Shown piece after piece: positions 14,668 to 42,181 of a stretch of 44,649 nt of DNA (the stretch's first letter is position 1; each line of letters begins with the position of its first letter). Location of the stretch: the IMG/VR virus record IMGVR_UViG_3300037461_001292, positions 1 to 44,649 of that record; one strand, 5' to 3'. Made by a program: the position numbers and the translations under genes. This DNA comes from a virus (taxonomy: Duplodnaviria > Caudoviricetes). The notes below the pieces were generated by a model. It had not been told where the DNA came from and ran no database searches. It saw nothing but the letters and a program-made list of their open reading frames with translations.

Positions 14668-15057
14668 ATGACAAAACATCTTAGTTGGGCAGGGAGAATA
14701 CAAACCCTAGCCACAGCACCATCAAACCCCATAACAGGGGAAATTTATTACAACACTACGGATACGAAGTTGTATTACTATGATGGCACACGCTGGAGAG
14801 CAACAAGTGCTTTCGGAACTACCTCTACTTCCACCTCGACCACTACCACATCTACATCTACTACCACGACTTCTACCTCAACCTCTACGACCACTTCCAC
14901 GAGCACTTCAAGCTCGACTTCTACCTCGACTACGACTACCAGCACCTCAACAACGACCACATCAACCTCAACAACGACCACATCAACCTCGACATCAACA
15001 ACGACCAGTACATCAACCAGCTCATCTACATCTAGTAGCACAACTACAACCGTATAA
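14668..15057 (+). CDS. Small putative virion protein with fibre-like motif and Ser/Thr tail (1 of 3)
   Basis: PSNPITGEIYYNTTDTKLYYYDGTRW followed by ~78 S/T residues; start moved to 14668. Confidence 0.8.
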   Translation: MTKHLSWAGRIQTLATAPSNPITGEIYYNTTDTKLYYYDGTRWRATSAFGTTSTSTSTTTTSTSTTTTSTSTSTTTSTSTSSSTSTSTTTTSTSTTTTSTSTTTTSTSTSTTTSTSTSSSTSSSTTTTV

Positions 15058-15060
15058 AAT

Positions 15061-15291
15061 ATGTCAAGCCAAAGCCTAAAAACACCAGGAACGCATGTAA
15101 CCAACCTAGAGGGCAGGATTTCGGTCAGGACTGTGGATATCGGAAACCCCAGGGATGGGGATATGTATTACGATAACGGAGATAATAAATGGTTTATTTA
15201 TGATGGAACTAACTGGAACGGGATAACGGGAACGACCACCTCTACATCCAGTTCTACCAGTACTTCCACGACTACAACTACATCAGCATAA
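15061..15291 (+). CDS. Small putative virion protein with Ser/Thr tail (2 of 3)
   Basis: NPRDGDMYYDNGDNKWFIYDGTNW plus ~18 S/T residues. Confidence 0.8.
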   Translation: MSSQSLKTPGTHVTNLEGRISVRTVDIGNPRDGDMYYDNGDNKWFIYDGTNWNGITGTTTSTSSSTSTSTTTTTSA

Positions 15292-15294
15292 AAT

Positions 15295-15582
15295 ATGGCA
15301 CACACAAGCTATTCTAAATTTAGAGGGGCAATCAAGAGAAAAACAGGGGCTTTCCCAGCCAATCCTACGGCTGGGGATATGTTCTACAACTCTACCCACA
15401 ACATCATGTATGTTTATGACGGGACTGGCTGGAGAGGCTGGACTTTCACTACCTCTACCTCTACCTCTACTACCACCACGAGTACCAGCACCTCTACCTC
15501 AACGACAACCACATCAACAAGTACTAGCAGCTCAACGAGCACTACTACTTCAACTAGCACCTCGACAACGACAACCGTATAA
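15295..15582 (+). CDS. Small putative virion protein with Ser/Thr tail (3 of 3)
   Basis: PANPTAGDMFYNSTHNIMYVYDGTGW plus ~43 S/T residues. Confidence 0.8.
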   Translation: MAHTSYSKFRGAIKRKTGAFPANPTAGDMFYNSTHNIMYVYDGTGWRGWTFTTSTSTSTTTTSTSTSTSTTTTSTSTSSSTSTTTSTSTSTTTTV

Positions 15583-15611
15583 TAATTAGACGATAACCAT
15601 AGGAGGTAATT

Positions 15612-16109
15612 ATGGCCGTCATTGTGTATAACCCGAAGCTGTTTGACGGGAAGCCGTCACAACCAGTCAGCTATTTATTCGAGAAGAAATACTGGAAACT
15701 GGGGGTGAACGAGATTAAGAAGTTCCCAGAAATGATAGCCGAGGGGATGTTAAGTACCTATGGGTTCCTGAGAAGGATAAACCCAGAGGACTTAGAGAAC
15801 GTTAAAAAAGATATGGAGGACAAGCCTTTTAAGTGCGAGCATTGCGGGGCGGAGTTCTCCAACGAGAAAGCCTTACAGGGGCACCTCATGGGCAAGCATA
15901 GGATGTCCAAAGAGTCAGAGGACTTCCTGAAGTCAATACCAGAGGTAGGTGCGGACGAGGAGTTTGTTCCTAATAAGAAACTTACTCCCGAAGAAACCGA
16001 AGGCATACCCCTTACGGGAACCGATAAAGATGGGGTAGAATGGTACGGAGAGGGCTTGGAAGATGATAATTTATCTGATATAAAGAAAGCAGGAGGAACT
16101 TTTAACTAA
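15612..16109 (+). CDS. Protein with a single C2H2 zinc finger
   Basis: KPFKCEHCGAEFSNEKALQGHLMGKH; AGGAGGT SD. Confidence 0.8.
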   Translation: MAVIVYNPKLFDGKPSQPVSYLFEKKYWKLGVNEIKKFPEMIAEGMLSTYGFLRRINPEDLENVKKDMEDKPFKCEHCGAEFSNEKALQGHLMGKHRMSKESEDFLKSIPEVGADEEFVPNKKLTPEETEGIPLTGTDKDGVEWYGEGLEDDNLSDIKKAGGTFN

Positions 16110-16110
16110 A

Positions 16111-16425
16111 ATGGCAACATCAGCGACAATGAGCAGGTATATCAGGCGGACAACGACTGGTTACTTTATTGAAAGACCTACACGCATATCCGCTATCTGC
16201 GTTACACCAGCAGGCGGAGATGTCCATGTGGACTTTTATGATGGCGGTGCAGGCGGTCAGGTAATCTGGTCTATGGAAGCTGATGCGGGTGCGGGTTCAA
16301 CAACCATCAATTTTAACCCACCTTTGAATTTCACCACCAAAATCTATGCCACTATCGAGGATGCCGACCCTGCCAATAACGGGAGTGTCCAGATAGCGGT
16401 GGTTGAACCAGCCCTGCATGTTTGA
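16111..16425 (+). CDS. Small beta-rich putative virion protein
   Basis: RISAICVT...VDFYDG...INFNPPLNFTTKIYATI; capsid-proximal position. Confidence 0.65.
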   Translation: MATSATMSRYIRRTTTGYFIERPTRISAICVTPAGGDVHVDFYDGGAGGQVIWSMEADAGAGSTTINFNPPLNFTTKIYATIEDADPANNGSVQIAVVEPALHV

Positions 16426-16450
16426 TTTTTGAGCCGTTTCGTGGTATAAT
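16422..16450 (+). promoter_or_regulatory. Promoter of the glycosylation operon
   Basis: TTGATT-17-TATAAT with extended -10 TG; AAGGAG at 16461-16466. Confidence 0.8.
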
Positions 16451-16466
16451 AAGCAAATAAAAGGAG

Positions 16467-17831
16467 ATGCCAATGGAAAGTTCTAAAAAGTCAGTTTGCA
16501 TTTTTACTAATTTCTTTGATTACGACCCCGTATATTCCCTAATTCATGTTACCGAAGACCAGATTAAGATGCTTAACCGTCATGGGTATAAGCCGAAAGT
16601 AATCGTTTCCGAGAGTTTCCAGGCTGGCGGTGCGTTCAAGGATGCGGAACTTTTGAGAGTTCCCAATGTTCCCTGCCACAACGAGGTCAAAAAGGATGAA
16701 AGTTTTGATAAGGATGTCAGCTCGATAGCAACGGCTTTGAGGGAACACCTCAAGGGTGTGGATGTCTGTATTACGCAGGACATCGTTTATAAGCCCTCTG
16801 AGCTGAAATACAATTTCGCAGCACGGCAGGTGGTGGGGGAGTTCCCGAATATCCGCTGGCTTCATTGGATAAACTCGGCAACTCCCCCAGTCCAACTGGG
16901 TCAGCTGATGAATGTCTTTACCGACGAGTATCTTAACCTGGTAGCAAAACCGTTCCCCAACTCTTATTATGTGTTTTTTAACGACATCTCCAAGCCGTTG
17001 GTGGCTAAAAACTTCGGGGTAACGGAGAAAGAGGTCAGGGTTGTCCACCACCCTTCGGACTTGGATGAGATTTATGGAGTGAAAGATGAAAACCTCAAGA
17101 GGTTCATTGAGAAGCGTGATTTCTATTCTGCGGATGCTATTTGCCTTTATCCGTGCCGATTGGATAGAGGAAAACAGGTCGAATACGCCATCAAAACAAT
17201 GGCGAAAGTCAAGGAACTCGGAATGAGCGTCAGGATGGTGGTTGCCGACTTCCACTCAACTGGAGGGGATAAAGTAACCTACCGTGATGAGCTGAAGCAG
17301 ATGGGTCTTGATTGGGGTCTGACACCGCAGGACTTGGCTTTCACTTCCGACTTCTGTGACGATTGGAAAGTATCGGTTCCTTATGAGAATATCGTTGCCC
17401 TGTTCAGGATGGGCAATGTTTTCATCATGCCGTCGGTCTCGGAAAGCTATTCCCTGGTGACTCAGGAGGCAGCCCTGACGAAGCATGTGGTAGTGTTGAA
17501 CCAGGATTTCCCCCCTTTCAGGGATATTTTCGGACCGACGGCTATCTTCAGGAAATACTCAAGTAACTGGGATGTTCTGGCTGGCTATGACGAGGCAATG
17601 GGAAGGGTAAGAGATGGTGGGGATAAGGGAACTTTCACCAAATACGGTCCGGCTAACCTATCCGACCAGGAGAGGAAACGCTCGGAAGCCAACTACCACA
17701 AGGACACCGCAGGAATGATTGTGGACAGGCTGAGGAACGATGTGGCTATGGCTTTACAGATAAAGATTAGGAAAGAACGGGGCTTGGACTTCGTATTTAA
17801 GCAGGAATTGGAGCCTTTATTATATGCTTGA
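16467..17831 (+). CDS. GT-B (GT4-like) glycosyltransferase
   Basis: YPCRLDRGKQVE and VFIMPSVSESYSLVTQEAA (E-x7-E); true start may be 16473. Confidence 0.85.
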   Translation: MPMESSKKSVCIFTNFFDYDPVYSLIHVTEDQIKMLNRHGYKPKVIVSESFQAGGAFKDAELLRVPNVPCHNEVKKDESFDKDVSSIATALREHLKGVDVCITQDIVYKPSELKYNFAARQVVGEFPNIRWLHWINSATPPVQLGQLMNVFTDEYLNLVAKPFPNSYYVFFNDISKPLVAKNFGVTEKEVRVVHHPSDLDEIYGVKDENLKRFIEKRDFYSADAICLYPCRLDRGKQVEYAIKTMAKVKELGMSVRMVVADFHSTGGDKVTYRDELKQMGLDWGLTPQDLAFTSDFCDDWKVSVPYENIVALFRMGNVFIMPSVSESYSLVTQEAALTKHVVVLNQDFPPFRDIFGPTAIFRKYSSNWDVLAGYDEAMGRVRDGGDKGTFTKYGPANLSDQERKRSEANYHKDTAGMIVDRLRNDVAMALQIKIRKERGLDFVFKQELEPLLYA

Positions 17832-18591
17832 CGCTTGTATTATCGGTATGGGGATGGTCGGTCAGGCTACTGACCACGCCTTCAATATCGGGAAGCATTT
17901 TGACCTGAAAGGTAGTAATATAACCTTAGAGGAAGCCGCTACCAAGCGGTATATCTTTATTTGCCTGCCCACCCCCGTTGTAGACGGGAAATACCAGACA
18001 GATGACATCATTAAAATCATCAAACAAATCAGGGATTACAGCCTGGGGCAGAATGTATTTATTATCAGGTCTACCGTATATCCTGGGTTTTGCCGTCATG
18101 TTATGGATATTCTCGGTATCTCTTGGGTTGTTCATGTGCCGGAATTTCTTACGGAAGCTACCTGGAGGGAAGATGCGGAAAACCCAGACATCATAGTAAT
18201 CGGGGCAGATGACCTAGTTTTCAGGGAAGATGTCGAGGGGGTTTTCAGGGCAAGATACCAGAGGAGTGTGGAGATATTCACCACCGATACGGTTACTTCC
18301 GAACTTACCAAGATGGCAATAAACGGCTTCTATACCACCAAAGTTACCTATGCCAATGAGATATACGAGGTTGCCAGGAAAGTTGATGCCAACTACGAAA
18401 CCCTGAAGAATATCATGTATAAGCGGAAATGGATTGGCAATAATCACCTGGATGTCTGGCACAACGGGAAACGGGGAGTATCAGGCAAGTGCCTGCCCAA
18501 AGACCTGGAAGCCCTGGTTTGTATAAGTGACAGTAAATTATTAAAAGTAGTCAAGGAGCTGAATGAACGAAACCTCGGAAGAAAAGAATAA
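17824..18591 (+). CDS. ugd: UDP-glucose/GDP-mannose dehydrogenase family (short form lacking the C-terminal domain)
   Basis: IIGMGMVG, FICLPTP, IRSTVYPG, PEFLTE, ELTKMAIN, GKCLPKD. Confidence 0.9.
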   Translation: MLDACIIGMGMVGQATDHAFNIGKHFDLKGSNITLEEAATKRYIFICLPTPVVDGKYQTDDIIKIIKQIRDYSLGQNVFIIRSTVYPGFCRHVMDILGISWVVHVPEFLTEATWREDAENPDIIVIGADDLVFREDVEGVFRARYQRSVEIFTTDTVTSELTKMAINGFYTTKVTYANEIYEVARKVDANYETLKNIMYKRKWIGNNHLDVWHNGKRGVSGKCLPKDLEALVCISDSKLLKVVKELNERNLGRKE

Positions 18592-19360
18592 CCTCACCTC
18601 AATAATTATCCCGATAGCCAACAACGACTATCCCCTCTGCCACTATACGGGCTTCTGTATCGGCAATATCAGGGAATACACCAATCCCGAAACCGACCCA
18701 TACGAGATAATCGTGGTGGACAACGCCTCAACTGTCGGTTTGGGAGGCTGGGAATGGGAAAAGGTAGTGGACAAGTATGTGAAGAATGACGACAACAGGG
18801 GGTTTGCCGCAGGCATGAACCAGGGGTTCAAGATGTCCAGCGGTCATTATATCTGCTTTTTGTCCAATGATGTCTTTGTCTTTGAGAACTGGCTCTCCGA
18901 CCTCAAGGAAGGCTTGAAATACACCGATGCCTCAAATGCTGTTCCGATGTATGGGAAGCCTTGGGGCAGGGCGGTTGAAGCCAGGCAGTTAAGGCAGGAG
19001 TGGCTGGACAAGACACCTGACCAGTATCTTTGCGACTTCATGGACTTTTCCTGCTTTATCACCACCAAAGACATTGTCAAGGAAATCGGGCTTCTTGATG
19101 AGGAGTTCGGGCTTGGCTACAGCGAGGATGTTGACTGGCGGTTCAGAATGGAACAGAAAGGCTATAAGGTCAAGGGTAACAAGCGGGTGAATACCCTGCA
19201 TATCGGTGGTGCTTCCCGTCATGTTCTTGAGGGAGTGGGCGTAAACTTCGGCGAGATAATGGACAAGAATAAGGAATATCTGGCAAAGAAATGGGGGCTT
19301 GACGAACATGGACAGCCCTTGTTCAGAAGGGAGAGGGAGAAAGATGTTGAAAAAGTTTAA
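18563..19360 (+). CDS. GT2-like glycosyltransferase
   Basis: TSIIIP, EIIVVDNAS, NRGFAAGMNQG, LLDEEF...EDVDW. Confidence 0.9.
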   Translation: MNETSEEKNNLTSIIIPIANNDYPLCHYTGFCIGNIREYTNPETDPYEIIVVDNASTVGLGGWEWEKVVDKYVKNDDNRGFAAGMNQGFKMSSGHYICFLSNDVFVFENWLSDLKEGLKYTDASNAVPMYGKPWGRAVEARQLRQEWLDKTPDQYLCDFMDFSCFITTKDIVKEIGLLDEEFGLGYSEDVDWRFRMEQKGYKVKGNKRVNTLHIGGASRHVLEGVGVNFGEIMDKNKEYLAKKWGLDEHGQPLFRREREKDVEKV

Positions 19361-19547
19361 ACAATGGCTCAGGTTTTCCAAGCTCGGAAACGAGTTTGAA
19401 CCCGTAGAGGCAATCGTGGTCTACTGTAACAAGGCAGGGAATTACACCATGTGTTTCAGGAAAAAGGATACGCCAATCAACTTTAAGTGTCCGCTTTGCG
19501 GAAGTTATGTGCCTAATGGAGAACACAGGGGATGCGTTTTAGTCTAG
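19344..19547 (+). CDS. Small Cys-containing protein
   Basis: Start moved to MLKKFK; FKCPLCG; overlaps both neighbours. Confidence 0.55.
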   Translation: MLKKFKQWLRFSKLGNEFEPVEAIVVYCNKAGNYTMCFRKKDTPINFKCPLCGSYVPNGEHRGCVLV

Positions 19548-20269
19548 TTACCAGTTACTATGCGGGAAGCGAATTACGAATCAAACAACTCAACAGGGCT
19601 GTCAGGTCAGTCCTCGGTAACACTTTTACCGACTTTGAATACATTATCTACGACGACGGCTCCCCGAACAAAGTGGATTTACCAAACGACGGGAGAATGG
19701 TTCGTCTGGAAGGTCCGCACCTTGAAAGAATAATCGCCATCAACCGAGGCTTGGAAAAAGCCCAGGGCGATTGGATTTGGCTTATAGACGCAGATGACGA
19801 GATATTTTCCTATTCTCTTGAGTGTTTGGTCAAGATGATAGAAAAATATCCCGATTACAAAGTATTTAATTTCTCATCATTACATGTCTTTACCGATTAC
19901 GGAACAACCATTAGGGGACCTTTTGAACCAGAACCGCAGGATGTTGGACACGCTGTTTTCGGTGGCGGAAATGTCGTTTCAGGAACATACATCTTTAAGC
20001 GAGAGTGTTTCCAGGCACTCGGAGGATTTCCAGAAATCTGGAACCCTTGGGACTTTAGCAAAATGGCTCAGGAGGAGTTTCCTGAAATTGAGCAGTATTT
20101 TCTCATTGATAAGGAGAATGAGCCTCAGAAGGTCATCAGGGAATTAGGCAATCCCTGGGGTCAGGACTACTATATGTTTTATAAACTAACCAGGAAATAC
20201 CACAGCAAACCGTTCAATATCCCTTTATACATGGTTCACCATGAGAAACAGGAGAGGTATGTCAGATAA
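19532..20269 (+). CDS. GT2-like glycosyltransferase
   Basis: FEYIIYDDGS, AINRGLEKAQGDWIWLIDADD, GQDY. Confidence 0.9.
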   Translation: MRFSLVTSYYAGSELRIKQLNRAVRSVLGNTFTDFEYIIYDDGSPNKVDLPNDGRMVRLEGPHLERIIAINRGLEKAQGDWIWLIDADDEIFSYSLECLVKMIEKYPDYKVFNFSSLHVFTDYGTTIRGPFEPEPQDVGHAVFGGGNVVSGTYIFKRECFQALGGFPEIWNPWDFSKMAQEEFPEIEQYFLIDKENEPQKVIRELGNPWGQDYYMFYKLTRKYHSKPFNIPLYMVHHEKQERYVR

Positions 20270-20435
20270 ACCGATAGATGCAAGAGAAGCCGAGATTTTA
20301 CGGGCAATTATACTCAATTTGGGGGTACTCCCTAATGAGTTTATTAAAAGAGAAAATGGGGATTGTCGGGTTACAGCCGAGTATTTGGCTTTTGATATAA
20401 ATGAAAGATTAAAGAAATGGAAAATAAACCGATAG
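20259..20435 (+). CDS. Small hypothetical protein
   Basis: Start moved to MSDKPID behind GGAGAGG; bridges two GT genes. Confidence 0.5.
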   Translation: MSDKPIDAREAEILRAIILNLGVLPNEFIKRENGDCRVTAEYLAFDINERLKKWKINR

Positions 20436-21148
20436 ATATTTTCATTACCGCTTACCTGAGGCAGTTCTATACCCAGGAAACTATCAGGTATCTGGAGGAA
20501 CGCACCAAATACCCTTATCGGTTATTCGTCATCAACAACGGAGGCAACAATGAAGTCTGCGAAGAAGCGACCCGACAGAATAAGCTGTTTCTTGAAATCC
20601 GCCCTAGCTATAACCTGGGCATACATGCTGCTTGGAATCTTGCCCTGGGGATTGCGGAGTCGGATTATTTCATTACTTCGGACAATGATATCTATGTTTC
20701 TCAACTTGACCCTGACTGGCTTACACAGCTTGTTTCCTTCATGGACGCACGACCCGATTACGGAGCAATTTCACTTTGTCCTCATATATTTATCGGGGCT
20801 GTCGGTATTGACCCTGATGACCCAGAAGATGTGAAGGAACGGAATATGTGCGGGGCGGTTATGCGGATAATGAGGCGGGAAGCCGTCTGGAAAGCAGGTG
20901 GCTGGGAAAAGGTAATCAGGACAGGCAGAAACCATGAGGAACGGACAATCTGCTCAAGGCTACAGACCGCAGGCTACAAGGTCGGTATCTGCTCAAGGCT
21001 TAGGGCTTTCCACCCATTTGGCGACAACTGGGGATACCCTGAAGACTTCACTCCCCAAATGCAGGGGCATAATCCAGAGCTGAAAGAATATGTCAAGAGT
21101 TTCGGAAATATACACGCTTATAACCAACTAACATGGATGCCGAAGTAA
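20417..21148 (+). CDS. GT2-like glycosyltransferase
   Basis: IFITAY, FVINNG, NLGIHAAWNLAL, YFITSDND. Confidence 0.85.
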   Translation: MENKPIDIFITAYLRQFYTQETIRYLEERTKYPYRLFVINNGGNNEVCEEATRQNKLFLEIRPSYNLGIHAAWNLALGIAESDYFITSDNDIYVSQLDPDWLTQLVSFMDARPDYGAISLCPHIFIGAVGIDPDDPEDVKERNMCGAVMRIMRREAVWKAGGWEKVIRTGRNHEERTICSRLQTAGYKVGICSRLRAFHPFGDNWGYPEDFTPQMQGHNPELKEYVKSFGNIHAYNQLTWMPK

Positions 21149-21990
21149 CAATCATCATACCCAGCCTTTCAAGGCTTGCCGAACCGCACGATAACCTGAG
21201 AATGAAAAATGCGGAAAGGGAGTGCCTGACCTCTATTTTGGAAACTGCCGAAGATATGCCTTTGCTGTTTGCCTCAAATGGGGGTGATTGTGAACCATTA
21301 CCGGCAATTACCGATGGGTTGTTACAGGATGTCAAGCGTATCCACATTTGGGAACAGGGTCAATGCAAGGCGGTCAATGCCGCAGTTGCCGCCACCGATA
21401 CGGAATATGTAATGGTAACCAATAACGATATGATTTACCCTCCTGGGTGGTTTGAGGAAGCTACCAGGTATTTGGAAGTCTATCCGTTTGTTTGTGCGAC
21501 CTTGGTTGAGCCCAATGCTGGTGCTTCTACATTTATCAAAATGCCATTCGGAGGGGCGGGGGGGGATTTCCGTAAAGCCGATTTCCTTAACTTCGTTTCC
21601 GAATACCAGAAACTCCCGTTTCCGATGATGACTGGGTTTAACCTGCCGTTTATCATTAAGCGGGAACTTTGGGATTTGGTGGGGGGATACGATATTAACT
21701 ACGACCCGTGGGGAAGTAATGGCGATAGCGATTTGGAATACAAGCTGAAGTTGGCTGGAGTCCAGCCGATGCAGAACCGCAACTGGCTGGTTTACCATTT
21801 CTCGCAGACTTCGGGAACTTTCCACGCTTCAAAAACTGCTTACTGGCAAAAGAACTTCGCTTACTTTGAAGAAAAGTGGGGATTTAAGCGGACTGATAAC
21901 GGGATTTGGGACGCAACTTTCAAAATTGACTACGAAAAGTTACAATTTAGACCAAAGTGGGCTAAAATCCCCTCTGGTGAAATCGTGTAG
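21133..21990 (+). CDS. GT2-like glycosyltransferase
   Basis: VTIIIP, KAVNAAV, YVMVTNND, VGGYD...DSDL, VYHF. Confidence 0.85.
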   Translation: MDAEVTIIIPSLSRLAEPHDNLRMKNAERECLTSILETAEDMPLLFASNGGDCEPLPAITDGLLQDVKRIHIWEQGQCKAVNAAVAATDTEYVMVTNNDMIYPPGWFEEATRYLEVYPFVCATLVEPNAGASTFIKMPFGGAGGDFRKADFLNFVSEYQKLPFPMMTGFNLPFIIKRELWDLVGGYDINYDPWGSNGDSDLEYKLKLAGVQPMQNRNWLVYHFSQTSGTFHASKTAYWQKNFAYFEEKWGFKRTDNGIWDATFKIDYEKLQFRPKWAKIPSGEIV

Positions 21991-22022
21991 TATGCCTAAA
22001 ACGGCTTCTGGAGTATGAACCT

Positions 22023-22595
22023 ATGATAAGAGACCTTTCAAGCGTCTATCAAATTGAAGATTACATGATTAAGTGCGAATTGCCACGGGGCGATTTCAGT
22101 TCGGTGGACATCCAAGCTATTTGGGAAGATATTAAGGCACTTGAAAAAGGTTCGGTGGTTGTGGAGATTGGAGTACGGTTCGGCTGTTCGCTGACCGCTA
22201 TCGCCATTTTAGCAAAAGAGGGGGTACAAATCACAGGCATTGATATTGAAGACCCCGAAGGCAGGAAAGAATACTGGGAGCGTTGCGGATTGGACAAGGT
22301 AGCTAAGTTCATCTGCGGGAAATCGGTTGAGGTGGCAAAGGATTGGAATACACCGATTGACTTCCTCCACATTGACGGCAACCACTTTTACGATGGCTGT
22401 AAGTCCGATATTGACGCTTGGCTTCCCCACATGAAGAAAGGCGGGGTAATGGCTTTCCACGACTTTGACGAGTCAAGCCCTGGGGTAATGCACGCCGTTA
22501 CCGAGCTGGTGGATACCAGGGGCAGGGGACTTAGGCAGTTTATCCAGATGAAGAAACTGATACCAGGAACAAGCATAGCTAAAGTATATGTATGA
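22023..22595 (+). CDS. Class I SAM-dependent methyltransferase (Methyltransf_24-like)
   Basis: VVEIGVRFGCS, IDFLHIDGNH, GGVMAFHD. Confidence 0.9.
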   Translation: MIRDLSSVYQIEDYMIKCELPRGDFSSVDIQAIWEDIKALEKGSVVVEIGVRFGCSLTAIAILAKEGVQITGIDIEDPEGRKEYWERCGLDKVAKFICGKSVEVAKDWNTPIDFLHIDGNHFYDGCKSDIDAWLPHMKKGGVMAFHDFDESSPGVMHAVTELVDTRGRGLRQFIQMKKLIPGTSIAKVYV

Positions 22596-33271: not shown

Positions 33272-33338
33272 TTGCCTTAGTTCCCCTAAAAGTGGTTAAA
33301 TAGAGTTGGAGACGCATTAAGCGTCTTTTTTATTAACT

Positions 33339-35231
33339 ATGGATTACACCAAACTAAACAACACCTACTTCGCCACACCTAAAGACGACCCAAAAGACCG
33401 TATTCAAGTCGAGGTGGGCGATAGCAAGGAGTTGACCTTCAAGCCCCAAGTTAAGGTGATGCGGTGGGATAACGAGTGTAATGTGTCAATTAGGTTGGTT
33501 AGTGACGACCTCAAAGACAAGAAACCCAAACTTGAAGACGGCAAGATTAAAGTCAAAGGAGATAAAACCGAAGCTCACTTTTACGAGATAACCGAAGGTG
33601 AGGGGGGAACGGAGTTTGAGGTAATCCTAAAGGAAAAGCCCGATACCAATATCCTTTCTTTTACCCTTGAAGATAAAGATGTCAGCTACTTCTACCAGCC
33701 AGCCCTTACCCAAGAAGAAATAGATGAGGGTGCAAAAAGACCTGAAAATGTAGAGGGAAGTTATGCGGTATATGCCAAAACCCCAAAGACCAACTGGACA
33801 GGGGGAAAAGAATACAAAGTTGGTAAAGTCGGACACATCTACCGCCCGAAGATAATTGACTCTGTGGGAAAAGAGGTTTGGGGAGAGCTTCACATAGAAA
33901 ACAAGGTTTTAACAGTTATCATTCCGCAGGAGTTTCTTGATAGTGCGATTTATCCGATAAGACATGCTGCGGGGTTGACGTTTGGATATACAACAATAGG
34001 GGGAAGTAATGGCTATGTTTGGTTCAGTAGTGCATGTCAAGGTTCTGTATTTGCGGGAGCGGCGGGTACTGGAAACAGTATGACCGTTTATTGTCAACGC
34101 ACAGGAAGTGGTTCACCGAATACAACTGTTACTATGTGCCTATATGATAGTAGTAGAAACAAAGTAACTAATGGACAAACGCAAACATCCTCATCTGGGA
34201 TTGATGCTTCGCCTGCATGGATGACATTAAATTTTATTTCGTCTCCCACCTTGACCGCTCAAGATTATTGGCTTGTAGGTTCTAATTCAGGGAGCGGACC
34301 TCCTTTTGGGGGATATGCACAGGTTTGGCATGATACTGGAAGCACAAATCAATACAATACTACATCAATGACTTATCCAACATTTCCTAGTTCGGTAAAT
34401 GCTGGAAGTCAGGTATATAAATACTCCATCTACGCCACCTATACGGCGGGGGGGACAACCACCTCCACCTCTACTACCACCTCAACATCTACCAGTACCA
34501 CAACTACCTCTACTTCCTCAAGTACCTCAACCACAACTACTTCTACATCAAGTAGCACTTCCAGCTCTACCTCAACAACTACAACCTCAACAACTACAAC
34601 CTCAACTTCTACAACTACCTCAACTTCAACGACCACCACTTCGACATCTTCTAGTACCTCAACTTCAACTACGACAACTTCCACCAGCACCTCAACTTCA
34701 AGCTCTACCTCAACCACCACCACCAGCACCTCAAGTTCTACGAGTACCTCAACTACCACTACTTCAACTTCCTCATCTACAAGTAGTTCAACCTCAACCA
34801 CCACAACTTCCACAAGTTCCTCAACTTCAACCAGCACCACTACCACAACTACCCTAAACCAAACCGAGGGGGGAATGGCTTTCGGTGAGGAAAATCCTAC
34901 CGAAGGGGAAACTCCAAGTAGCTGGGCTTTGTGGAGTGATGGGGCAGGGGGAAACCCTACAATTATCGGAGATGCTGATTGGGGAAAACTGGAAATAGAC
35001 ATCAACGAGCAAGGCAGGAGCAGGGTTTACGATTTGGGTAGTGCTTCGGATAGGACACACAGCCTTACCAGAAACCGTTACGGAACTGGTCAGGGAACTT
35101 CCACTTTACAGATAAGGGGAAGTGATACATTGTTTGCTCAAGATGATGAATTACCAGAGTGGGTTAATTATTCAGCACCTACTTCCCAAAACTGGAGGTA
35201 TGTGCAGGTAAGGGAGATAAAGACAGGATAA
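33339..35231 (+). CDS. Multi-domain mucin-like putative virion protein
   Basis: Two N-terminal globular regions, 133-codon S/T tract (34455-34853), C-terminal domain shared with 38138..39595. Confidence 0.85.
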   Translation: MDYTKLNNTYFATPKDDPKDRIQVEVGDSKELTFKPQVKVMRWDNECNVSIRLVSDDLKDKKPKLEDGKIKVKGDKTEAHFYEITEGEGGTEFEVILKEKPDTNILSFTLEDKDVSYFYQPALTQEEIDEGAKRPENVEGSYAVYAKTPKTNWTGGKEYKVGKVGHIYRPKIIDSVGKEVWGELHIENKVLTVIIPQEFLDSAIYPIRHAAGLTFGYTTIGGSNGYVWFSSACQGSVFAGAAGTGNSMTVYCQRTGSGSPNTTVTMCLYDSSRNKVTNGQTQTSSSGIDASPAWMTLNFISSPTLTAQDYWLVGSNSGSGPPFGGYAQVWHDTGSTNQYNTTSMTYPTFPSSVNAGSQVYKYSIYATYTAGGTTTSTSTTTSTSTSTTTTSTSSSTSTTTTSTSSSTSSSTSTTTTSTTTTSTSTTTSTSTTTTSTSSSTSTSTTTTSTSTSTSSSTSTTTTSTSSSTSTSTTTTSTSSSTSSSTSTTTTSTSSSTSTSTTTTTTLNQTEGGMAFGEENPTEGETPSSWALWSDGAGGNPTIIGDADWGKLEIDINEQGRSRVYDLGSASDRTHSLTRNRYGTGQGTSTLQIRGSDTLFAQDDELPEWVNYSAPTSQNWRYVQVREIKTG

Positions 35232-35232
35232 T

Positions 35233-38136
35233 ATGGCTGAAGTAACCCTTTACCCCTCCGCCAACAACGGCGGTTGGGACGCAGACGAAGCTAACGCCTA
35301 TGCCGATGACGGTGCGTACGCTACAACCGCACCAGGCATAAACTCTACCGATAGCGTGGAGTATGGTAACTTTGGTTTTGACGCCCAAATCCCCGCAGGT
35401 TCAACAATCAATTCGGTAACTCTTAACGCTCAATGGCTTGTATCTACCACCGCTTCCTCCGCCACCTTCCGTTTGGCAGGGCTTATCAGTAATGTGGTAG
35501 AGGGTACGGAACATACAGACGCTACCGAACCCACCAGCGACAAGACCACCAACTTTGCCATGACCTCCCTCCCGACCAGAGATGAACTCCTTGACGGGGT
35601 GTTTGAGGTCAGGGTGGGAGCACAACGGGGAGCAGGTGCGACAGGCTACACCATGAGCTTGGATTATGTAAGTGTAACGGTGGATTATACTTCGGCAACA
35701 ACTACTTCCACTTCGACAACTACCTCAACTTCTACCTCTACCTCTACCACAACTACCTCTACCTCAAGCTCTACTTCAACAACCACAACCAGTACCTCAA
35801 GCTCAACTTCCTCAAGCACCTCAACAACAACAACCTCTACTTCCTCAAGTACCAGTACCTCTACCACGACTACTTCTACCAGTTCCTCGACCTCAACCAG
35901 TACGACAACCACATCTACCAGTTCGTCAACCTCCACTTCAACAACGACAACTTCCACTTCATCAAGCACCTCTACTTCAACTTCAACCACCACTACCTCA
36001 ACAAGTTCCTCAACTTCAACGACCACTACTTCAACCAGTAGCTCAACCAGTAGTTCAACCTCAACCACAACTACCTCGACTTCATCATCTACTACCACAA
36101 CCTCAACCTCTACTTCCAGTTCAACGAGTTCGTCAACCACGACTACTTCCACCAGTAGTTCTACCTCAACAACTACAACTTCAACCAGCACATCATCAAG
36201 TACATCAAGCTCGACCACAACTACCTCTACCTCGTCAAGCACTTCTACAACGACAACTTCCACTTCAACCTCGTCATCAACAAGTACCTCAACGACCACA
36301 ACTTCTACCTCAAGTTCAACCTCTACTACCACAACCTCAACTTCCAGTAGCACTTCCTCAAGTACATCAACTACTACCACCTCAACTTCAAGCTCTACAT
36401 CTACGACAACTACCAGTACCAGCTCAAGTACTTCCACCTCTACAACAACCACTTCTACCAGCACCAGCACCTCAACGACCACGACAAGTACGAGCAGTTC
36501 TACTTCAACCTCAACTTCGACAACAACCAGTTTGCCTTACCAAGTAGATGACATTATTTGGGAGTGGTCGGGAACAAGCACCTCCACCTCAACCTCGACC
36601 ACTACTACCTCTACTTCCACCACCACAACCACCAGTACCAGTACAACAACCACCTCAACTTCTACTTCGTCTAGTACCTCAACCTCAACAACCACAACCA
36701 GTACCAGTAGCTCGACATCTACCTCAAGCTCTACTACCACAACTTCTACCTCCAGCTCAACTTCGACAACCACAACCTCTACCAGCAGTTCTACCTCAAC
36801 CAGCAGTTCGACAACCACTACTTCAACCTCAACAACCACTACCTCAACTTCAAGCTCAACTACGACCAGCTCAAGTACCAGCACTACCCTTTCCTCAACG
36901 ACTTCAACTTCAACCACCACCACCTCTACCTCGTCATCTACCTCAACAACCACAACCTCTACTTCAACCAGCAGTTCGACTTCCTCATCAACTACGACAA
37001 CTTCAACCTCAACTTCAACAACAACCAGCACTTCTACCTCTACAACAACCACCTCGACCTCAACTTCAACAAGTTCCAGTACCTCAACTACGACTACCAG
37101 TACTTCTTCAAGCACCTCTACCACGACAACCTCTACCAGTTCGTCAACTTCCAGCTCTACCTCAACGACAACTACCTCAACCTCAACCAGCACCACCACT
37201 ACTTCAACCTCAAGTTCTACCAGCAGTAGCAGTTCAACAACTACTACTTCAACTTCCAGTTCCACTTCAACAACGACTACCTCAACCTCAAGCTCTACTT
37301 CAAGCTCGACAAGTACCACTACCACCTCTACCTCGACAACAACAACCTCGACCTCCAGCTCAACCAGCTCGTCTACTTCTACAACTACAACAAGTACCAG
37401 CACCAGCTCATCAACCACAACCACCTCTACTTCAAGCTCGTCATCAACCAGTACCACCCTGACTATAACGACAACCTCTACTTCGTCATCTACAACTACC
37501 TCCACTACGACCACCAGCACCAGTTCCTCAACATCTACAACCACTACTTCAACCAGCTCAAGCACGAGTTCGTCAACCTCAACTACGACCACCTCTACCT
37601 CAACTTCAACAACAACGAGTACCTCAAGCTCAACCACTACCACCTCTACCAGTAGCTCAACTACTACGACCTCAACTTCAAGTTCAACCTCAACGACAAC
37701 GAGTACCTCTACCTCGACAACCACTACCTCTACCTCGACATCAAGCTCGACATCTACCACCACCACTTCAACTTCCTCCAGCACATCTTCGAGTACCTCA
37801 ACGACAACTACCTCAACCTCTACCTCATCAAGTACCTCAACCTCTACAACCACCACCTCGACCTCAACGAGTTCTTCAAGCTCAACCTCAACCACCACCA
37901 CCACCACCTCTACCAGTTCTTCAACTTCAACCACGACCTCAACCTCGTCAAGTTCGTCAACCACCACCTCAACTACCACCACTTTCCCGTTCATGTGGAC
38001 AGTTGAGGAAGTGGGGGTTCAGGCAGGTGGGCTACCCTCACCTGTTAAAATGGAGATACAGGTAGAAGACCCTGCCAAACAGCAGGGAGGACTGGCTGGA
38101 ACAGACGATTACCAAAAAACAGAGGATTACTTCTAA
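35233..38136 (+). CDS. Giant mucin-like Ser/Thr protein (967 aa)
   Basis: ~150-aa beta-rich head, then tracts of 281 codons (35689-36531) and 470 codons (36574-37983). Confidence 0.85.
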   Translation: MAEVTLYPSANNGGWDADEANAYADDGAYATTAPGINSTDSVEYGNFGFDAQIPAGSTINSVTLNAQWLVSTTASSATFRLAGLISNVVEGTEHTDATEPTSDKTTNFAMTSLPTRDELLDGVFEVRVGAQRGAGATGYTMSLDYVSVTVDYTSATTTSTSTTTSTSTSTSTTTTSTSSSTSTTTTSTSSSTSSSTSTTTTSTSSSTSTSTTTTSTSSSTSTSTTTTSTSSSTSTSTTTTSTSSSTSTSTSTTTTSTSSSTSTTTTSTSSSTSSSTSTTTTSTSSSTTTTSTSTSSSTSSSTTTTSTSSSTSTTTTSTSTSSSTSSSTTTTSTSSSTSTTTTSTSTSSSTSTSTTTTSTSSSTSTTTTSTSSSTSSSTSTTTTSTSSSTSTTTTSTSSSTSTSTTTTSTSTSTSTTTTSTSSSTSTSTSTTTSLPYQVDDIIWEWSGTSTSTSTSTTTTSTSTTTTTSTSTTTTSTSTSSSTSTSTTTTSTSSSTSTSSSTTTTSTSSSTSTTTTSTSSSTSTSSSTTTTSTSTTTTSTSSSTTTSSSTSTTLSSTTSTSTTTTSTSSSTSTTTTSTSTSSSTSSSTTTTSTSTSTTTSTSTSTTTTSTSTSTSSSTSTTTTSTSSSTSTTTTSTSSSTSSSTSTTTTSTSTSTTTTSTSSSTSSSSSTTTTSTSSSTSTTTTSTSSSTSSSTSTTTTSTSTTTTSTSSSTSSSTSTTTTSTSTSSSTTTTSTSSSSSTSTTLTITTTSTSSSTTTSTTTTSTSSSTSTTTTSTSSSTSSSTSTTTTSTSTSTTTSTSSSTTTTSTSSSTTTTSTSSSTSTTTSTSTSTTTTSTSTSSSTSTTTTSTSSSTSSSTSTTTTSTSTSSSTSTSTTTTSTSTSSSSSTSTTTTTTSTSSSTSTTTSTSSSSSTTTSTTTTFPFMWTVEEVGVQAGGLPSPVKMEIQVEDPAKQQGGLAGTDDYQKTEDYF

Positions 38137-38137
38137 T

Positions 38138-39595
38138 ATGGCAGATACTCACTCACTCGACCTAGAGTTAAGCAGTAGCCAATACGCAAAAATTACCGAT
38201 GCCGCCCAAACCGGACTGGACATTACCGGAGATTTGAGTTTTGAGGCATGGATAAAACTTGAGCAACTTCCGTCAACCGCCACTTCCGATTTCATGCTGG
38301 GGGCAAAGACTGATGGTTCAACTTTTTCCTACCAGCTTTATATCCAAGCTGGTGACAACAAGATGTTGTTCTATTACAGCAACAATGGCTCAACTGATGT
38401 TGCCAATACCACCTACGGAACTTGCGATACCGCTTTTGATGCGGGAAATGTCGGGGTTTGGACTCATGTGGCAGTTGTTTTGGATGCTTCGGAAGCCAGT
38501 ATCACTTTCTACATCAATAATGTAGCCAAAACTACTACCTATGCTAGGCAGAACGCAACCTCTATTTACAATAGTGCGGTGGATTTTTCGATAGGCTCAA
38601 GGGCAGGGGGGGGTTCCTACTTTGATGGGAAGATGGATGAGGTCAGGGTTTGGAACGACATCAGGACATCTGGTGAAATATCTGATAATTACCAGAGAGA
38701 GTTGGTTGGTAATGAAGCTGGACTGGTTGGGTATTGGAAACTGAACAATGACTATTTAGACGAAACTGCCAATAATAATGACTTGACTGGGGTAAACTCT
38801 CCAGTATTTTCCGCAGATGTTCCAGCTTCAATTACTACTACTTCAACTTCTACTACCAGCTCAACCTCAACAACTACTACCTCTACCTCAAGCTCAACCT
38901 CAAGCTCAACAACGACTACTTCTACTTCAAGTAGCACTTCTACCAGTACAACAACAACCTCTACTTCCAGCTCTACCTCCTCATCAACCAGCACTACACT
39001 TTCGTCAACGACTTCCACTTCCACCACGACAACCTCTACCAGTACCTCAACCACCACAACCAGTACCAGCTCATCTACCAGCAGTTCTACAAGCACCACA
39101 ACCACCTCAACCTCAAGCTCAACCTCTACAACTACCTCTACTTCGACATCAATAACAACAACCTCTACCTCTACGACCACGACTTCTACTTCCTCATCAA
39201 CCTCAACTACAACCACCCTGCCTTTCGTTACTGGAAGCCTTGTATTCGGTGAGGAGAACCCAACCGAAGGGGAAACTGCTGTCAGTTGGCAGACATTCTC
39301 AGACGGTGCTGGAGGCACTCCTACCATTATCGGTGATGCGGAGTGGGGTAAGCTGGAAGTTGATATAACCGAGCAGGGAAGAAGCGGTGTATACAATTTC
39401 GGAAACGCCAATCCCAGGAATTATACGGTTACCAGGAATTATTACGGAACTGGTCAGGGTACTGCTACCTTGCAGATAAGGGGAAGTGCCGATGCCTTTG
39501 ACCAGGACGATGAACTCCCTGAGTGGAATACCTACATAGCAACAACTGGACAATCATGGCGGTATATCCAAATAAGGGAAATAAAGGAAAGCTGA
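38138..39595 (+). CDS. LamG/ConA-like domain, Ser/Thr tract and conserved C-terminal domain
   Basis: SFEAWIK...WTHVAVV...YFDGKMDEVRVWN...GLVGYWKLN; 128-codon S/T tract. Confidence 0.88.
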   Translation: MADTHSLDLELSSSQYAKITDAAQTGLDITGDLSFEAWIKLEQLPSTATSDFMLGAKTDGSTFSYQLYIQAGDNKMLFYYSNNGSTDVANTTYGTCDTAFDAGNVGVWTHVAVVLDASEASITFYINNVAKTTTYARQNATSIYNSAVDFSIGSRAGGGSYFDGKMDEVRVWNDIRTSGEISDNYQRELVGNEAGLVGYWKLNNDYLDETANNNDLTGVNSPVFSADVPASITTTSTSTTSSTSTTTTSTSSSTSSSTTTTSTSSSTSTSTTTTSTSSSTSSSTSTTLSSTTSTSTTTTSTSTSTTTTSTSSSTSSSTSTTTTSTSSSTSTTTSTSTSITTTSTSTTTTSTSSSTSTTTTLPFVTGSLVFGEENPTEGETAVSWQTFSDGAGGTPTIIGDAEWGKLEVDITEQGRSGVYNFGNANPRNYTVTRNYYGTGQGTATLQIRGSADAFDQDDELPEWNTYIATTGQSWRYIQIREIKES

Positions 39596-39596
39596 T

Positions 39597-40535
39597 ATGG
39601 CAACAATCGTAGATAGTTATAGTGAGGCAAATTATAACGGGTCATCAAATGTTGTTTACTACTATTTAGGGCTAGGACAATCATTTACTGGGAATGGTTA
39701 CTTATTAAATAAGGCAACCTTTTATATCCAGAACTATGAAGGGACAGCTACTGGTAATATTGATTGTGCAATATATGCCCATACTGGAACTTACGGAACA
39801 ACATCACTCCCAACAGGAAGTGCATTAGCAATATCTTCTCAAGTTGATGTTTCAACAATCGGTTCTTCCTACGAATTGATAGATTTCACTTTTACTGGTG
39901 TAAACAAAATATCATTAACTAATGGAACTTATTATGTCGTTGTTGTTAGAAATGTTGATGCTTCTGGTACTGTTCTCATTGGACATGATAGTAGCTCACC
40001 TACACATTCTGGTAATAAGTCAAGAAATAGTGGTGGTGGATGGGTTTACATTTCTAGTGATGATTGTATCTTTTATGTTTATTCCGATGACCCACCAACC
40101 ACCACCTCAACCACAACTACCAGTACCAGTACCAGCACCACGACTACTTCCACCAGCAGTTCTACATCAAGTTCAACCACCACCTCCACCACAACTTCCG
40201 TTCCTTACCAAGTAGATGATATTGTCATCTTCTGGGAAGGAACAACAACTTCTACTTCTACTTCGTCATCAACCACCACCACCTCAACCTCAACCACCAC
40301 CACCTCGACCTCTACCTCGACAACTACCTCTACCTCAACGAGCAGTTCAACCACCACCACCTCTACCTCAACCTCTACAACAACTACTTCAACTTCTACC
40401 ACCACTACCTCGACCTCATCATCAACCAGCTCATCTACTTCCTCATCAACCAGCAGTTCCACCACCACCTCATCAAGCTCATCTACCTCAACCACCATAA
40501 CCCTGCCATATAAGTTCAGAGTTGAAATGGTTTAA
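39597..40535 (+). CDS. Beta-sandwich head with two Ser/Thr tracts
   Basis: LGQSFTG...ATFYI...LTNGTYYVVVV head; tracts separated by VPYQVDDIVIFWEG. Confidence 0.82.
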   Translation: MATIVDSYSEANYNGSSNVVYYYLGLGQSFTGNGYLLNKATFYIQNYEGTATGNIDCAIYAHTGTYGTTSLPTGSALAISSQVDVSTIGSSYELIDFTFTGVNKISLTNGTYYVVVVRNVDASGTVLIGHDSSSPTHSGNKSRNSGGGWVYISSDDCIFYVYSDDPPTTTSTTTTSTSTSTTTTSTSSSTSSSTTTSTTTSVPYQVDDIVIFWEGTTTSTSTSSSTTTTSTSTTTTSTSTSTTTSTSTSSSTTTTSTSTSTTTTSTSTTTTSTSSSTSSSTSSSTSSSTTTSSSSSTSTTITLPYKFRVEMV

Positions 40536-40557
40536 CAATTAGTTATAGAATAGAAGT

Positions 40558-41862
40558 ATGACACAAACGTCAGCCCGAAGGCTCAGGATAAACAACCCAG
40601 ACCTCGCCAACAGCGAGAAAACCTACCTTGATGCCGACTACGCATCGGGAACTACCATTACCGTGCAGTCAAATGTTTCCTTTGCGGAAAACGACATTAT
40701 CGTTATCGGTGAGGTTGGACAGGAAAAGACCGAGGGCGGTATCGTATCTTCTGTATCTTCCGACAAGAAAACAATCACTTTGGATGCGGCTTTGAACTTT
40801 TCCCACACCAAAGGCATTGTCGTTTACAGGGCGGAATATAACTTCGTTGATATTGATGTGGACATGGTAGCAGGGAGTACAGTCTGGGCAGCCCTTTCCC
40901 AATCGCCTATCCAATGGGATAGGAAAGAAACCATTTATATCCACCAGGGAGGGGTATCGGGTTACAATTACAGGTTCAAGTTCAGAAACTCGGCAACAGG
41001 TAACTACTCTGAATACTCACCGACAATTACTGGTGCTGGGTTTGCCAAGAATACCATAGGCTACATGATACAGGAAGTCCGCAAGTCCATCATTGACCCA
41101 GACGGGAATATCGTCAGCAATTCCGACATCATCAGGTACTTCAACGCCGCCAAAGACATCATCAACGGAACCAGGAACGATTGGTGGTTCTGGCTCAAGG
41201 AAGATACCAGCTCTATCACCACGGTTGACGGGCAGAAGGAATACAACCTTGACGACATCTCCACCCATATCGAGTACATCAAGTACATTAAGTACAACTA
41301 CAATGACGGAACCAGGAACGAAACCTGGCACCTAAGGCACCTGTCCGACATTGAATACGACTACGAGTCAATGGACGGTAACGCCTCGGAAGATGATGAG
41401 GTTGCCTACTACAACCTAAAGCCAGGCGACAGCAATTCAACCTCTGGGTACTTCAGGGTTTGGCCTGTTCCGGCAACTGACGACTATGGAACTTTCCATG
41501 TCAGGTATTACGAGCCTGACGCCGACTACTCCGATATTGCCGACACCACCGCTATTCCCATGCCTGAACTTTTAATCAACTACGCCATTTTCCTTTGCGA
41601 ACAGCTGAAAGGAAACAATAGCAAAGCCAAGATACACTTTGAGCTGTTCTTCGGTGCCCAGGATAAGGAAAAGGGCAGGAAAGTGCAGACTGGGATTGCC
41701 GCTTTGGAGGCTATGCAGAGGGGAAAGCTCAGGCCTTTAGGCCAGCCCCGTTCCTTAAAGACCTTCAGGGGCAGGAGAGCCATGCAGAGGTTCTTTGGCG
41801 ACCATGCGGTTGATGCCGATAAGATAAGGGAAGACTGGTTCGATTATCCGAGGACGAAATGA
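40558..41862 (+). CDS. Putative head-tail adaptor/tail tubular A-like protein with N-terminal extension
   Basis: DIIRYFNAA...WWFWL...ITTVDGQKEYNL...FRVWPVP...VRYY...LLINYA pattern typical of podovirus adaptors. Confidence 0.7.
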   Translation: MTQTSARRLRINNPDLANSEKTYLDADYASGTTITVQSNVSFAENDIIVIGEVGQEKTEGGIVSSVSSDKKTITLDAALNFSHTKGIVVYRAEYNFVDIDVDMVAGSTVWAALSQSPIQWDRKETIYIHQGGVSGYNYRFKFRNSATGNYSEYSPTITGAGFAKNTIGYMIQEVRKSIIDPDGNIVSNSDIIRYFNAAKDIINGTRNDWWFWLKEDTSSITTVDGQKEYNLDDISTHIEYIKYIKYNYNDGTRNETWHLRHLSDIEYDYESMDGNASEDDEVAYYNLKPGDSNSTSGYFRVWPVPATDDYGTFHVRYYEPDADYSDIADTTAIPMPELLINYAIFLCEQLKGNNSKAKIHFELFFGAQDKEKGRKVQTGIAALEAMQRGKLRPLGQPRSLKTFRGRRAMQRFFGDHAVDADKIREDWFDYPRTK

Positions 41863-41863
41863 A

Positions 41864-42181
41864 ATGGCAGATAAAGTTGAGGAAACCACTACCAGAGATG
41901 ACTTTTCAGGAGGGGTGCAGGTAAAGACCAGCCGTTTCCTGAAAAAAGCAAACGAGCTTGATGACGGGCAGAATGTTTCCTATGCGGAAGTAGGCTCTCT
42001 CGGTAAGAGCCAGGGTTATATCCAAAGGGGAAGCGACCTGACTTCCACAACCACCACTTCCACCTCTACTTCCACGACTACTACTTCCACCTCGACCTCT
42101 ACTTCCACGACGACAACTTCCACATCTACCACAACTACCTCAACATCCAGCTCTACCTCTACATCAACCAGCACAAGCTAA
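41864..42181 (+). CDS. N-terminal fragment of a tail nozzle-like protein with a Ser/Thr tail
   Basis: DDFSGGVQ...ANELDDGQNVSY...GSLGKSQGY then 46 S/T residues and TAA. Confidence 0.7.
   Translation: MADKVEETTTRDDFSGGVQVKTSRFLKKANELDDGQNVSYAEVGSLGKSQGYIQRGSDLTSTTTTSTSTSTTTTSTSTSTSTTTTSTSTTTTSTSSSTSTSTSTS

Follow-up and report, generated by a model that had tools for sequence, protein, structure and literature searches.

Co-inheritance of a glycosyltransferase island with Ser/Thr-tract proteins suggests phage-encoded O-glycosylation of virion tags in an uncultured tailed phage lineage

What is a large set of sugar-handling enzymes doing between the capsid and adaptor genes of a tailed phage, amid proteins carrying long tracts of serine and threonine? 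The question is raised by the linear virus record IMGVR_UViG_3300037461_001292 (Duplodnaviria; Caudoviricetes), the 44,649 bases of which are here called the window, and in which an original prediction had pointed to a glycosylation island nested among nine genes with Ser/Thr (S/T) tracts. Comparing the window with its relatives, we found that glycosyltransferases (GTs) and tracts form a module that is real, conserved and mobile, and the likely explanation, as judged from gene content and joint inheritance, is that the phage encodes the O-glycosylation of S/T tags on its own virion proteins, with the first sugar probably added by an enzyme here called GT4a. The end of the record falls within a gene, and the window is probably short of a few kilobases (kb), since complete relatives with terminal repeats measure about 46.5–51 kb.

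All nine predicted open reading frames (ORFs) with S/T tracts were present, on the plus strand, and pure runs, defined as at least 8 consecutive Ser/Thr residues, add up to 1,378 residues across them. Three small paralogues, ST1 (14668..15057), ST2 (15061..15291) and ST3 (15295..15582), share a beta-rich head domain of about 50 amino acids (aa), followed by an S/T tail of 78, 18 and 43 aa, respectively. After a gap of 14.9 kb come ST4 (32030..33271; 413 aa, with runs of 36 and 35 at the C-terminus), ST5 (33339..35231; 630 aa, with an interdomain tract of 133 aa and a homologue in relative G076 that also bears tracts), ST6 (35233..38136; 967 aa, 744 of them in runs of 278, 105, 189 and 172), ST7 (38138..39595; a LamG/ConA-like domain, PF13385, E 3e-23, with runs of 55, 50 and 21) and ST8 (39597..40535; an N-terminal domain with runs of 34 and 85). 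The expected arrangement, with the tract genes flanking the island within the structural module, was amended for ST9 (41864..42181; a run of 46), which lies after the adaptor gene and is a split-off N-terminus of the tail hub, its residues 13–58 matching the fused hub N-terminus of relative G056 (E 3e-7). When the concatenated proteins were shuffled 200 times, the longest S/T run reached 9 at most (mean 5.8), and the longest tract here has 278 residues as compared to 115 aa, the maximum given for phage low-complexity regions over 102 proteomes in the accessible text of PMC6821194. All ten Ser/Thr codons occur in the tracts, and identical codons at adjacent same-residue pairs (137 of 579) were fewer than in any of 500 shuffles (range 142–194), which together exclude recent DNA slippage; with regards to slippage or an assembly artefact as the origin of the tracts, we rejected both in view of this codon usage, the degenerate nature of the tandem repeats and the conservation in relatives.

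The tracts are furthermore selective in what interrupts them. Among 222 single interruptions, counted over 212 distinct S/T proteins and not mutually independent as events, we found Ile (114), Gln (37), Leu (25), Val (18), Arg (10), Lys (10), Ala (2), Pro (0) and other residues (6), where point mutation would be expected to give about 18–24% each of Ala and Pro. This suggests that either the enzyme acting on the tracts or the stalk itself may need an extended strand. The PTS domains of mucins are tandem regions rich in Pro, Thr and Ser, and the tracts, being Pro- and Ala-free, differ from these as well as from the repeats of serine-rich repeat proteins (SRRPs), so that the word 'mucin-like' of the original prediction can be kept only as an analogy. 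Tract grammar also varies by lineage (G050 and G051 versus G049, G056 and G077), with Q/K/R-interrupted repeats in one group and Ile-interrupted repeats in another, and with pure S/T tracts in the clade of the window; it may track enzyme specificity.

The island between the two groups of tract genes had been predicted to hold about ten GTs together with sugar-modifying enzymes, and indeed comprises ten GTs and eight tailoring enzymes at 16467–31353, all on the plus strand. By Pfam, three of the GTs are GT-B/GT4-like, namely GT4a (16467..17831; PF00534), which is the first enzyme of the island and the candidate for priming, a further GT-B enzyme (22592..23566; PF13524) and GT4b (24875..25870; PF13524/PF13692). 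The other seven belong to GT2 (PF00535): GT2a (18563..19360), the core enzymes GT2b (19532..20269) and GT2c (20417..21148), each found in 40 of 44 GT4a loci, GT2d (21133..21990), GT2e (25857..26603), GT2f (29113..29796) and, as the last enzyme of the island, GT2g (30424..31353). Nine of the ten exceeded the Pfam cut-off, with GT2g just below it (21.2 versus 23.3 bits) and its G076 orthologue above. A motif scan found [DN]xD in five of the seven GT2 enzymes, with matches off the expected position in GT2a and none in GT2e; by eye, both of these have xND at the expected place. The tailoring enzymes are a short NDP-sugar dehydrogenase-like protein (17824..18591; in 36 of 44 GT4a loci), two methyltransferases (22023..22595, PF13578, and 28472..29116, PF08241), an RfbH-like pyridoxal phosphate enzyme resembling deoxysugar 3-dehydrases (23541..24878; NF011936, 409.7 bits versus a cut-off of 423), a hexapeptide sugar acetyltransferase-like protein (26590..27111), a DegT-family sugar aminotransferase (27089..28126), a cupin resembling sugar epimerases/isomerases (28113..28493) and a polysaccharide deacetylase-like protein with weak matches only (29789..30427). 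The dehydrogenase-like protein, at 255 aa, gave no Pfam match for a C-terminal UDP-binding domain, and this short form is kept in most relatives. Islands of relatives hold additional epimerases, a C-methyltransferase, a GT47 and a sulfotransferase.

If tracts and enzymes work together, they should be inherited together. Random retention of one part in relatives that lack the other, which the original prediction had named as counter-evidence, was looked for and did not emerge as the pattern; instead we found joint presence and joint absence. Using a profile of the major capsid protein (MCP) and the best 80 of 228 loci (capsid identity at least 53%, loci not de-duplicated), an S/T run of at least 10 was present in all 72 loci with at least 450 bases downstream of the MCP gene, and GT4a in 43 of the 44 with at least 4 kb downstream. 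A further profile, built around a more distant MCP (best 80 of at least 547 loci), reached sisters of about 29–43% capsid identity, most of which lacked both tracts and GT genes. Searching the whole records of 21 tract-less sister loci, two of these records being complete, gave no match to a 13-codon tract pattern (0/21) and no GT2 over the cut-off (0/21, one weak match); in three such sisters (L471, L474 and L477) the stretch from capsid gene to hub spans less than 10 kb. In a quick MCP tree of 95 among 133 distinct rows, the other 38 having been omitted because they had less than 5 kb downstream and no GT4a, 73 rows had both parts, 19 had neither and three were discordant. The discordant score of L373 reflects a weak capsid label, the record holding 1,072 pattern matches. 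L473, an apparent exception, has one local GT4b match and no tract in a record that is 26% complete.

The same pairing was found outside this capsid lineage. With a GT4a profile (best 80 of 132 viral loci), GT4a was seen with tracts in the backbones G050/G051, G060, G062, G063, G016 and G049. Phages of about 85–95 kb with siphovirus-type tail genes (G050/G051) carry GT4a, GT2b, GT2c and GT2g together with S/T proteins, as do a 47-kb phage of another MCP family and a 74-kb phage, and in a 119-kb record GT4a and two GT2 enzymes adjoin a tract gene. On metagenome contigs, all of at most 94 kb, the best 80 GT4a loci had the same neighbours. In a GT4a tree the backbone label required five changes, four of them forced, where the label 'other' also takes in loci whose MCP fell outside the flank. 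Fourteen GT4a loci had no run of at least 15 in their flanks, with L024 and the borderline L356 (a run of 12) as further cases, and the L024 contig has tracts after its MCP (locus L268). The four largest records among the 14 bear tracts elsewhere and the other ten are of at most 37 kb and at most 40% complete; nine of the 14 form one clade, which includes two tract-bearing genomes. A tract search over whole records was positive in 32 of 44, and in 17 of 17 that were near-complete, although these 44 were hand-chosen, many as known tract bearers, so that the informative part is the four largest of the 14.

It could be argued that such pairing is mere hitch-hiking of neighbours in one module without a functional link, since the majority of cases fall in one clade. 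This explanation fails where the pairing holds with the parts far apart or inverted: they lie more than 10 kb from each other in G050/G051 and in inverted orientation in G060 and the L268/L517 contig, and the tract carriers of different backbones are non-homologous proteins. We find it hardly credible. L268 and L517 are one contig of 35.5 kb, and there and in G060 either the whole GT island or just GT4a has been inverted or relocated away from the S/T genes, with both parts retained.

Approached from the tracts, the link is looser. An S/T-coding DNA pattern gave 122 loci among about 610 stretches estimated to carry it. PF00535 was present in 31 of 89 tract-selected records as compared to 0 of 49 records selected by an arbitrary 14-mer, the latter control consisting of the 50 larger of 80 loci. 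Of 50 tract-selected records nine had GT4a, and of 50 controls none; both sets were hand-picked with a preference for larger records, and two of the nine are near-identical jumbo phages (224 and 277 kb). GT4a is thus almost always accompanied by tracts, whereas most tracts occur without GT4a; the general link between GT2 and tracts is modest, and that of GT4a is specific but one-way.

Why should GT4a, rather than another enzyme, prime the tracts? It is the most constant enzyme of the island, stands first, has a conserved promoter, is fused to core GT2s and occurs without GT2 in one complete genome, and we infer from these traits that it adds the first sugar to Ser/Thr. Its family comprises 982 proteins at 90% clustering and, counting matches of E 1e-30 or better, 417 clusters at 50% identity. 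GT4a retains the acidic residues of the EX7E motif (E326/E334, invariant) and was modelled with a GT-B fold (mean predicted local distance difference test, pLDDT, 82). Five database proteins join GT4a to GT2b, GT2g or GT2a; the fused forms include GT4a–GT2b in P0131 and P0153, GT4a–GT2g in P0125 and several GT domains in P0263. In the complete genome G035, GT4a adjoins a tract gene and the genome gave no PF00535 match, which fits GT4a as the minimal enzyme. The GT-B fold is generic, so that structure does not tell the acceptor.

We therefore favour a mechanism in which the tags on nine proteins of the particle operon would be O-glycosylated in the host cytoplasm and then built into a sugar-coated head and tail. 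GT4a would place the first sugar, the conserved GT2b, GT2c and GT2g would extend it, and the variable GTs with the methyl-, acetyl- and aminotransferases would add phage-specific outer sugars. ST1–ST3 would form trimers through their heads and stand on the capsid, and ST4–ST9 would make stalks around neck and tail, keeping binding domains (in ST7, for example, the LamG domain) off the particle. The coat might serve as a hydrated, protease-resistant shield that is non-sticky or repels minerals.

How far do the proteins themselves bear out a place in the particle? Joint inheritance, and tracts on cement and hub proteins in relatives, agree with the original view of stalks glycosylated in the cytoplasm and displayed on head and tail, the glycosylation and the display of the large S/T proteins being the parts of that view that stay conjectural. 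In L373 a Phage_cement_2 protein bears the tract, and the hub homologues of G056 and G077 have one as an internal insert. The ST1–ST3 head, modelled as four strands (pLDDT 79 for ST3), resembles, weakly but consistently, phage fibre proteins as well as the domains through which collagen XV/XVIII, Mtd and tailspikes trimerize: the top VIA rows for ST3 were the collagen XV trimerization domain, the Mtd N-terminus and CBA120 TSP3, with Z scores of 3.9–4.1 that are below the trust level of the tool. Foldseek gave no match for this model at E 0.001, comparing the head profile by sequence with solved structures gave E 0.24 at best, and ST2 had a weak PHROG tail-fibre match (E 1e-5). The tail in the ST3 slot is 38–44 aa long in 20 of 26 relatives, and that in the ST1 slot ranges from 18 to 105. 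Alternatively, the island might glycosylate the tracts on products most of which never join the particle, acting instead as released decoys or intracellular scaffolds. ST4, ST5, ST6 and ST8 lack a virion-family match and are placed with particle genes by position, and the large S/T genes vary widely in number and size. The S/T genes, however, lie within the morphogenesis operon, relatives fuse tracts to structural proteins, and there is no apparent export signal: as originally predicted, signal peptides were not seen, no S/T protein having any hydrophobic segment by hydropathy, with no dedicated signal-peptide predictor applied. We regard decoys or scaffolds as very improbable; the five large S/T proteins are probably displayed on the virion. 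Cysteine-rich S/T-tract proteins were also seen near a GT4a relative in complete phages of 97–110 kb (L050, 9677–10435; L068, 9595–10380).

Several results weigh against glycosylation of virion tags primed by GT4a. Most joint presence falls in one clade, and on the MCP tree the label 'both' needed four changes, only two of them forced by starred branches, so that independent events within the lineage are few. L325 has tracts and no GT on a 40% complete contig. Compared with a control of collagen-type repeats, the enrichment of PF00535 was modest (31 of 89 versus 7 of 47, p 0.016; among near-complete records 9 of 15 versus 2 of 10, p 0.10), 41 of the 50 tract-selected records, including 8 of 12 near-complete ones, had no GT4a, and tract amount did not correlate significantly with GT2 number (rho 0.35, p 0.17, n=17). 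Neither Pfam nor PHROG gave a virion-protein match for ST4, ST5, ST6 or ST8. Pneumococcal GtfA came only at rank 23 (Z 12.5) in the GT4a fold search, under enzymes acting on small molecules and lipids, and the nearest cellular kin of GT4a resemble mannosylglucosylglycerate synthase, the acceptor of which is a sugar; because of this resemblance, priming could be the role of a GT2.

A different use of the island would be to alter the host surface, changing lipopolysaccharide, capsule or S-layer glycans through the flippase and polymerase of the host, with the S/T proteins as unrelated stalks. The accessory enzymes do resemble O-antigen genes (RfbH-, DegT- and WcaF-like), and such a role is in print for SAR11 phages: pelagimyophages, like the window, have a variable region where fibre genes are mixed with GT and deoxysugar genes, but their GTs are mostly GT8, read as modifying the host O-chain, and the accessible text mentions no S/T acceptor (PMC7029224). 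The island also has a sigma70-like promoter of its own before GT4a (16422..16450, plus strand; 10/12 of the consensus with an extended -10), and 23 of 68 relatives score at least 10 ahead of GT4a, as compared to 3% of shuffles. The scaffold gene, however, shares this type of promoter (in 25 of 56 relatives); another such promoter precedes ST1 (14630..14659, plus strand; 11/12), where 8 of 68 relatives reach a score of at least 10 following the capsid gene, and promoter and terminator counts across the whole region were at chance level. Serotype conversion of the Gtr type depends on a membrane flippase and a membrane transferase. In line with the original prediction no multi-membrane-spanning protein was found, three of the 66 window ORFs having one 19-residue hydropathy window of at least 1.9 and none having two, and none was found in G070, G076 or G084. 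Flippase, polymerase and priming-transferase families were absent from the 86 of 110 listed ORFs scanned in two complete relatives. As for temperate lifestyle, a tyrosine integrase (PF00589) was found in none of five complete relatives, with 14 of 14 controls positive, and no serine recombinase matched in the scanned ORFs of two complete relatives. Alteration of the host surface would also leave it unexplained that tracts track GT4a between backbones, and we judge it improbable.

The enzymes could, finally, act in hypermodification of the phage DNA or produce a small glycoside, with the tracts being unmodified beta stalks or otherwise modified. Interruption by Ile, Gln, Leu, Val, Arg and Lys, without Pro or Ala, would suit extended strands, and a phage glycosyltransferase (9iqz) appeared at rank 28 in the fold search. 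The nearest cellular kin of GT4a, two MggS-like proteins of 22% identity in a sample of 401 genomes (mannosylglucosylglycerate synthase-like GT4, NF041101), adjoin the compatible-solute genes GpgS and MpgP, in their case without an S/T tract, and GT4a itself had no NF041101 match at E 0.001. In DNA glycosylation of the T4 or Tet/JBP-linked type an enzyme makes the hydroxymethyl base. Families for base hydroxymethylase, Tet/JBP, GpgS and MpgP were absent from Pfam scans of the window and two complete relatives; a separate PF12851 (Tet/JBP) search is uninformative, since it matched nowhere, controls included. The island moreover lies within the structural operon, and its co-inheritance with tracts would go unexplained; we strongly doubt this explanation.

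To our knowledge, the general view is that tailed phages carry no glycans, the demonstrated exception being a few mycobacteriophages. Virus-encoded synthesis of sugars and their transfer onto the particle occur in the fibrils of Mimiviridae and the capsid of chloroviruses, giant viruses that infect eukaryotes, as opposed to the bacterial podovirus of about 48 kb considered here. Phage virion glycosylation is known already, and it is the scale and the dedicated acceptor tags that are unusual here. Mycobacteriophages Che8, Corndog and Myrna, which carry glycans on virion proteins, likewise encode their own GTs, and in the accessible text capsid and tail-tube proteins are modified and few enzymes are named (Freeman et al. 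2023, as described in PMC11256854, PMC12363180 and PMC12619734). In the window, by contrast, the capsid protein has no tract, and nine dedicated acceptor genes with 18 enzymes fill over half of the sequence. For homology to mycobacteriophage enzymes such as Che8 gp110 and Corndog gp38, two of the ten GTs were compared with GenBank phages: GT4a found no relative among 50,697 records, and GT2b gave only partial, generic GT2 matches with no mycobacteriophage among the 15 listed of 30.

By analogy, the module most likely works like an SRRP glycosylation locus on a virion, without being a member of that family. SRRPs are O-glycosylated in the cytoplasm by GtfA/B and leave by accessory Sec, and their loci share with the window long Ser/Thr-rich regions and an adjoining conserved priming GT with variable extending GTs, as given in the accessible text of PMC6973325. 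Differing from SRRPs, the window has no long signal peptide, wall anchor, SecA2/Y2 or GtfA/GtfB pair, its tracts are Ala-free and the carrier is a virion; Pfam families for SecA2/SecY2/Asp export and wall anchors were absent from 51 window ORFs, NCBIfam gave no match to a GtfA/GtfB model, and GT4a resembled GtfA at the generic fold level only. No account of virion proteins with S/T tracts alongside a GT island came up in the literature searched, which covered a minority of subscription papers.

Should glycosylation of virion tags be correct, an uncultured lineage devotes a third of its genome to glycan enzymes and about a fifth more to acceptor proteins, the module has moved among podovirus-like, siphovirus-like and large phages, and phage GT clusters currently taken as host-surface conversion genes could be read in another way; the tag could also be of use in protein engineering, as a glycosylation tag free of any signal peptide. 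It is an even question whether this amounts to a widespread, mobile phage glycocalyx, in which a largely phage-specific GT4 family primes a portable Pro/Ala-free tag and a swappable, O-antigen-like island sets the glycan type of each phage. If so, the tag would be appendable to any capsid or tail protein, and dense O-glycosylation of a protein in the cytoplasm would need no more than GT4a and the tag.

The remainder of the window fits a tailed phage particle, with small and large terminase subunits, an SU10-like portal, a putative scaffold, a predicted cement protein, MCP, adaptor and hub on the plus strand. No window protein matched a tape-measure family, and we therefore read the phage as podovirus-like. 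The MCP (13686..14606; PF10124/PF25209, PHROG 371) has 42% identity to its best match among GenBank phages. It is preceded by the predicted capsid cement/decoration protein (13082..13621), for which the nearest named ESM Atlas clusters carry Phage_cement families on 15–33% of members (scores 0.89–0.91), to be taken as a lead only. The SU10-like head–tail adaptor (40558..41862; PF24175) and the predicted P22 gp10-like hub (42185..43681; ESM Atlas 0.96 to a cluster in which 84% of members have PF11134) lie downstream of the tracts of ST8 and ST9, respectively. Between the small S/T genes and the island are two conserved proteins, one with a C2H2-like zinc finger (15612..16109) and one of 104 aa (16111..16425) with homologues in L286 and L293 that bear an S/T tail, all of these genes being on the plus strand.

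With regards to the host, a 4.1-kb contig (L020) in a metagenome-assembled genome of Ca. Zambryskiibacteriota carries a capsid gene of the clade at 63%, which either hints weakly at the host or stems from faulty binning. GT4a was not found in that assembly, and only distant kin occurred in 2 of 401 genomes of the phylum, and this phylum was not adopted as host. Compatible-solute genes (GpgS, MpgP and MggS-like) were seen in two small genomes of the sampled phylum (L582, 2942–7388; L583, 7973–11081). There were no tRNA genes in the window and no RNA data among the sequencing runs listed as containing the sequence. The gene at 11393–12025, between portal and scaffold, has a PTPTP linker and no Pfam match, and its product carries what we take to be a lysozyme/transglycosylase-like motif. 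An HNH endonuclease-like gene (31343–31930) sits between the island and ST4, and the large terminase (6506–8815) is 769 aa long and contains an intein-like insert (PF14890, under the cut-off), close relatives having about 498 aa and a few also the long form.

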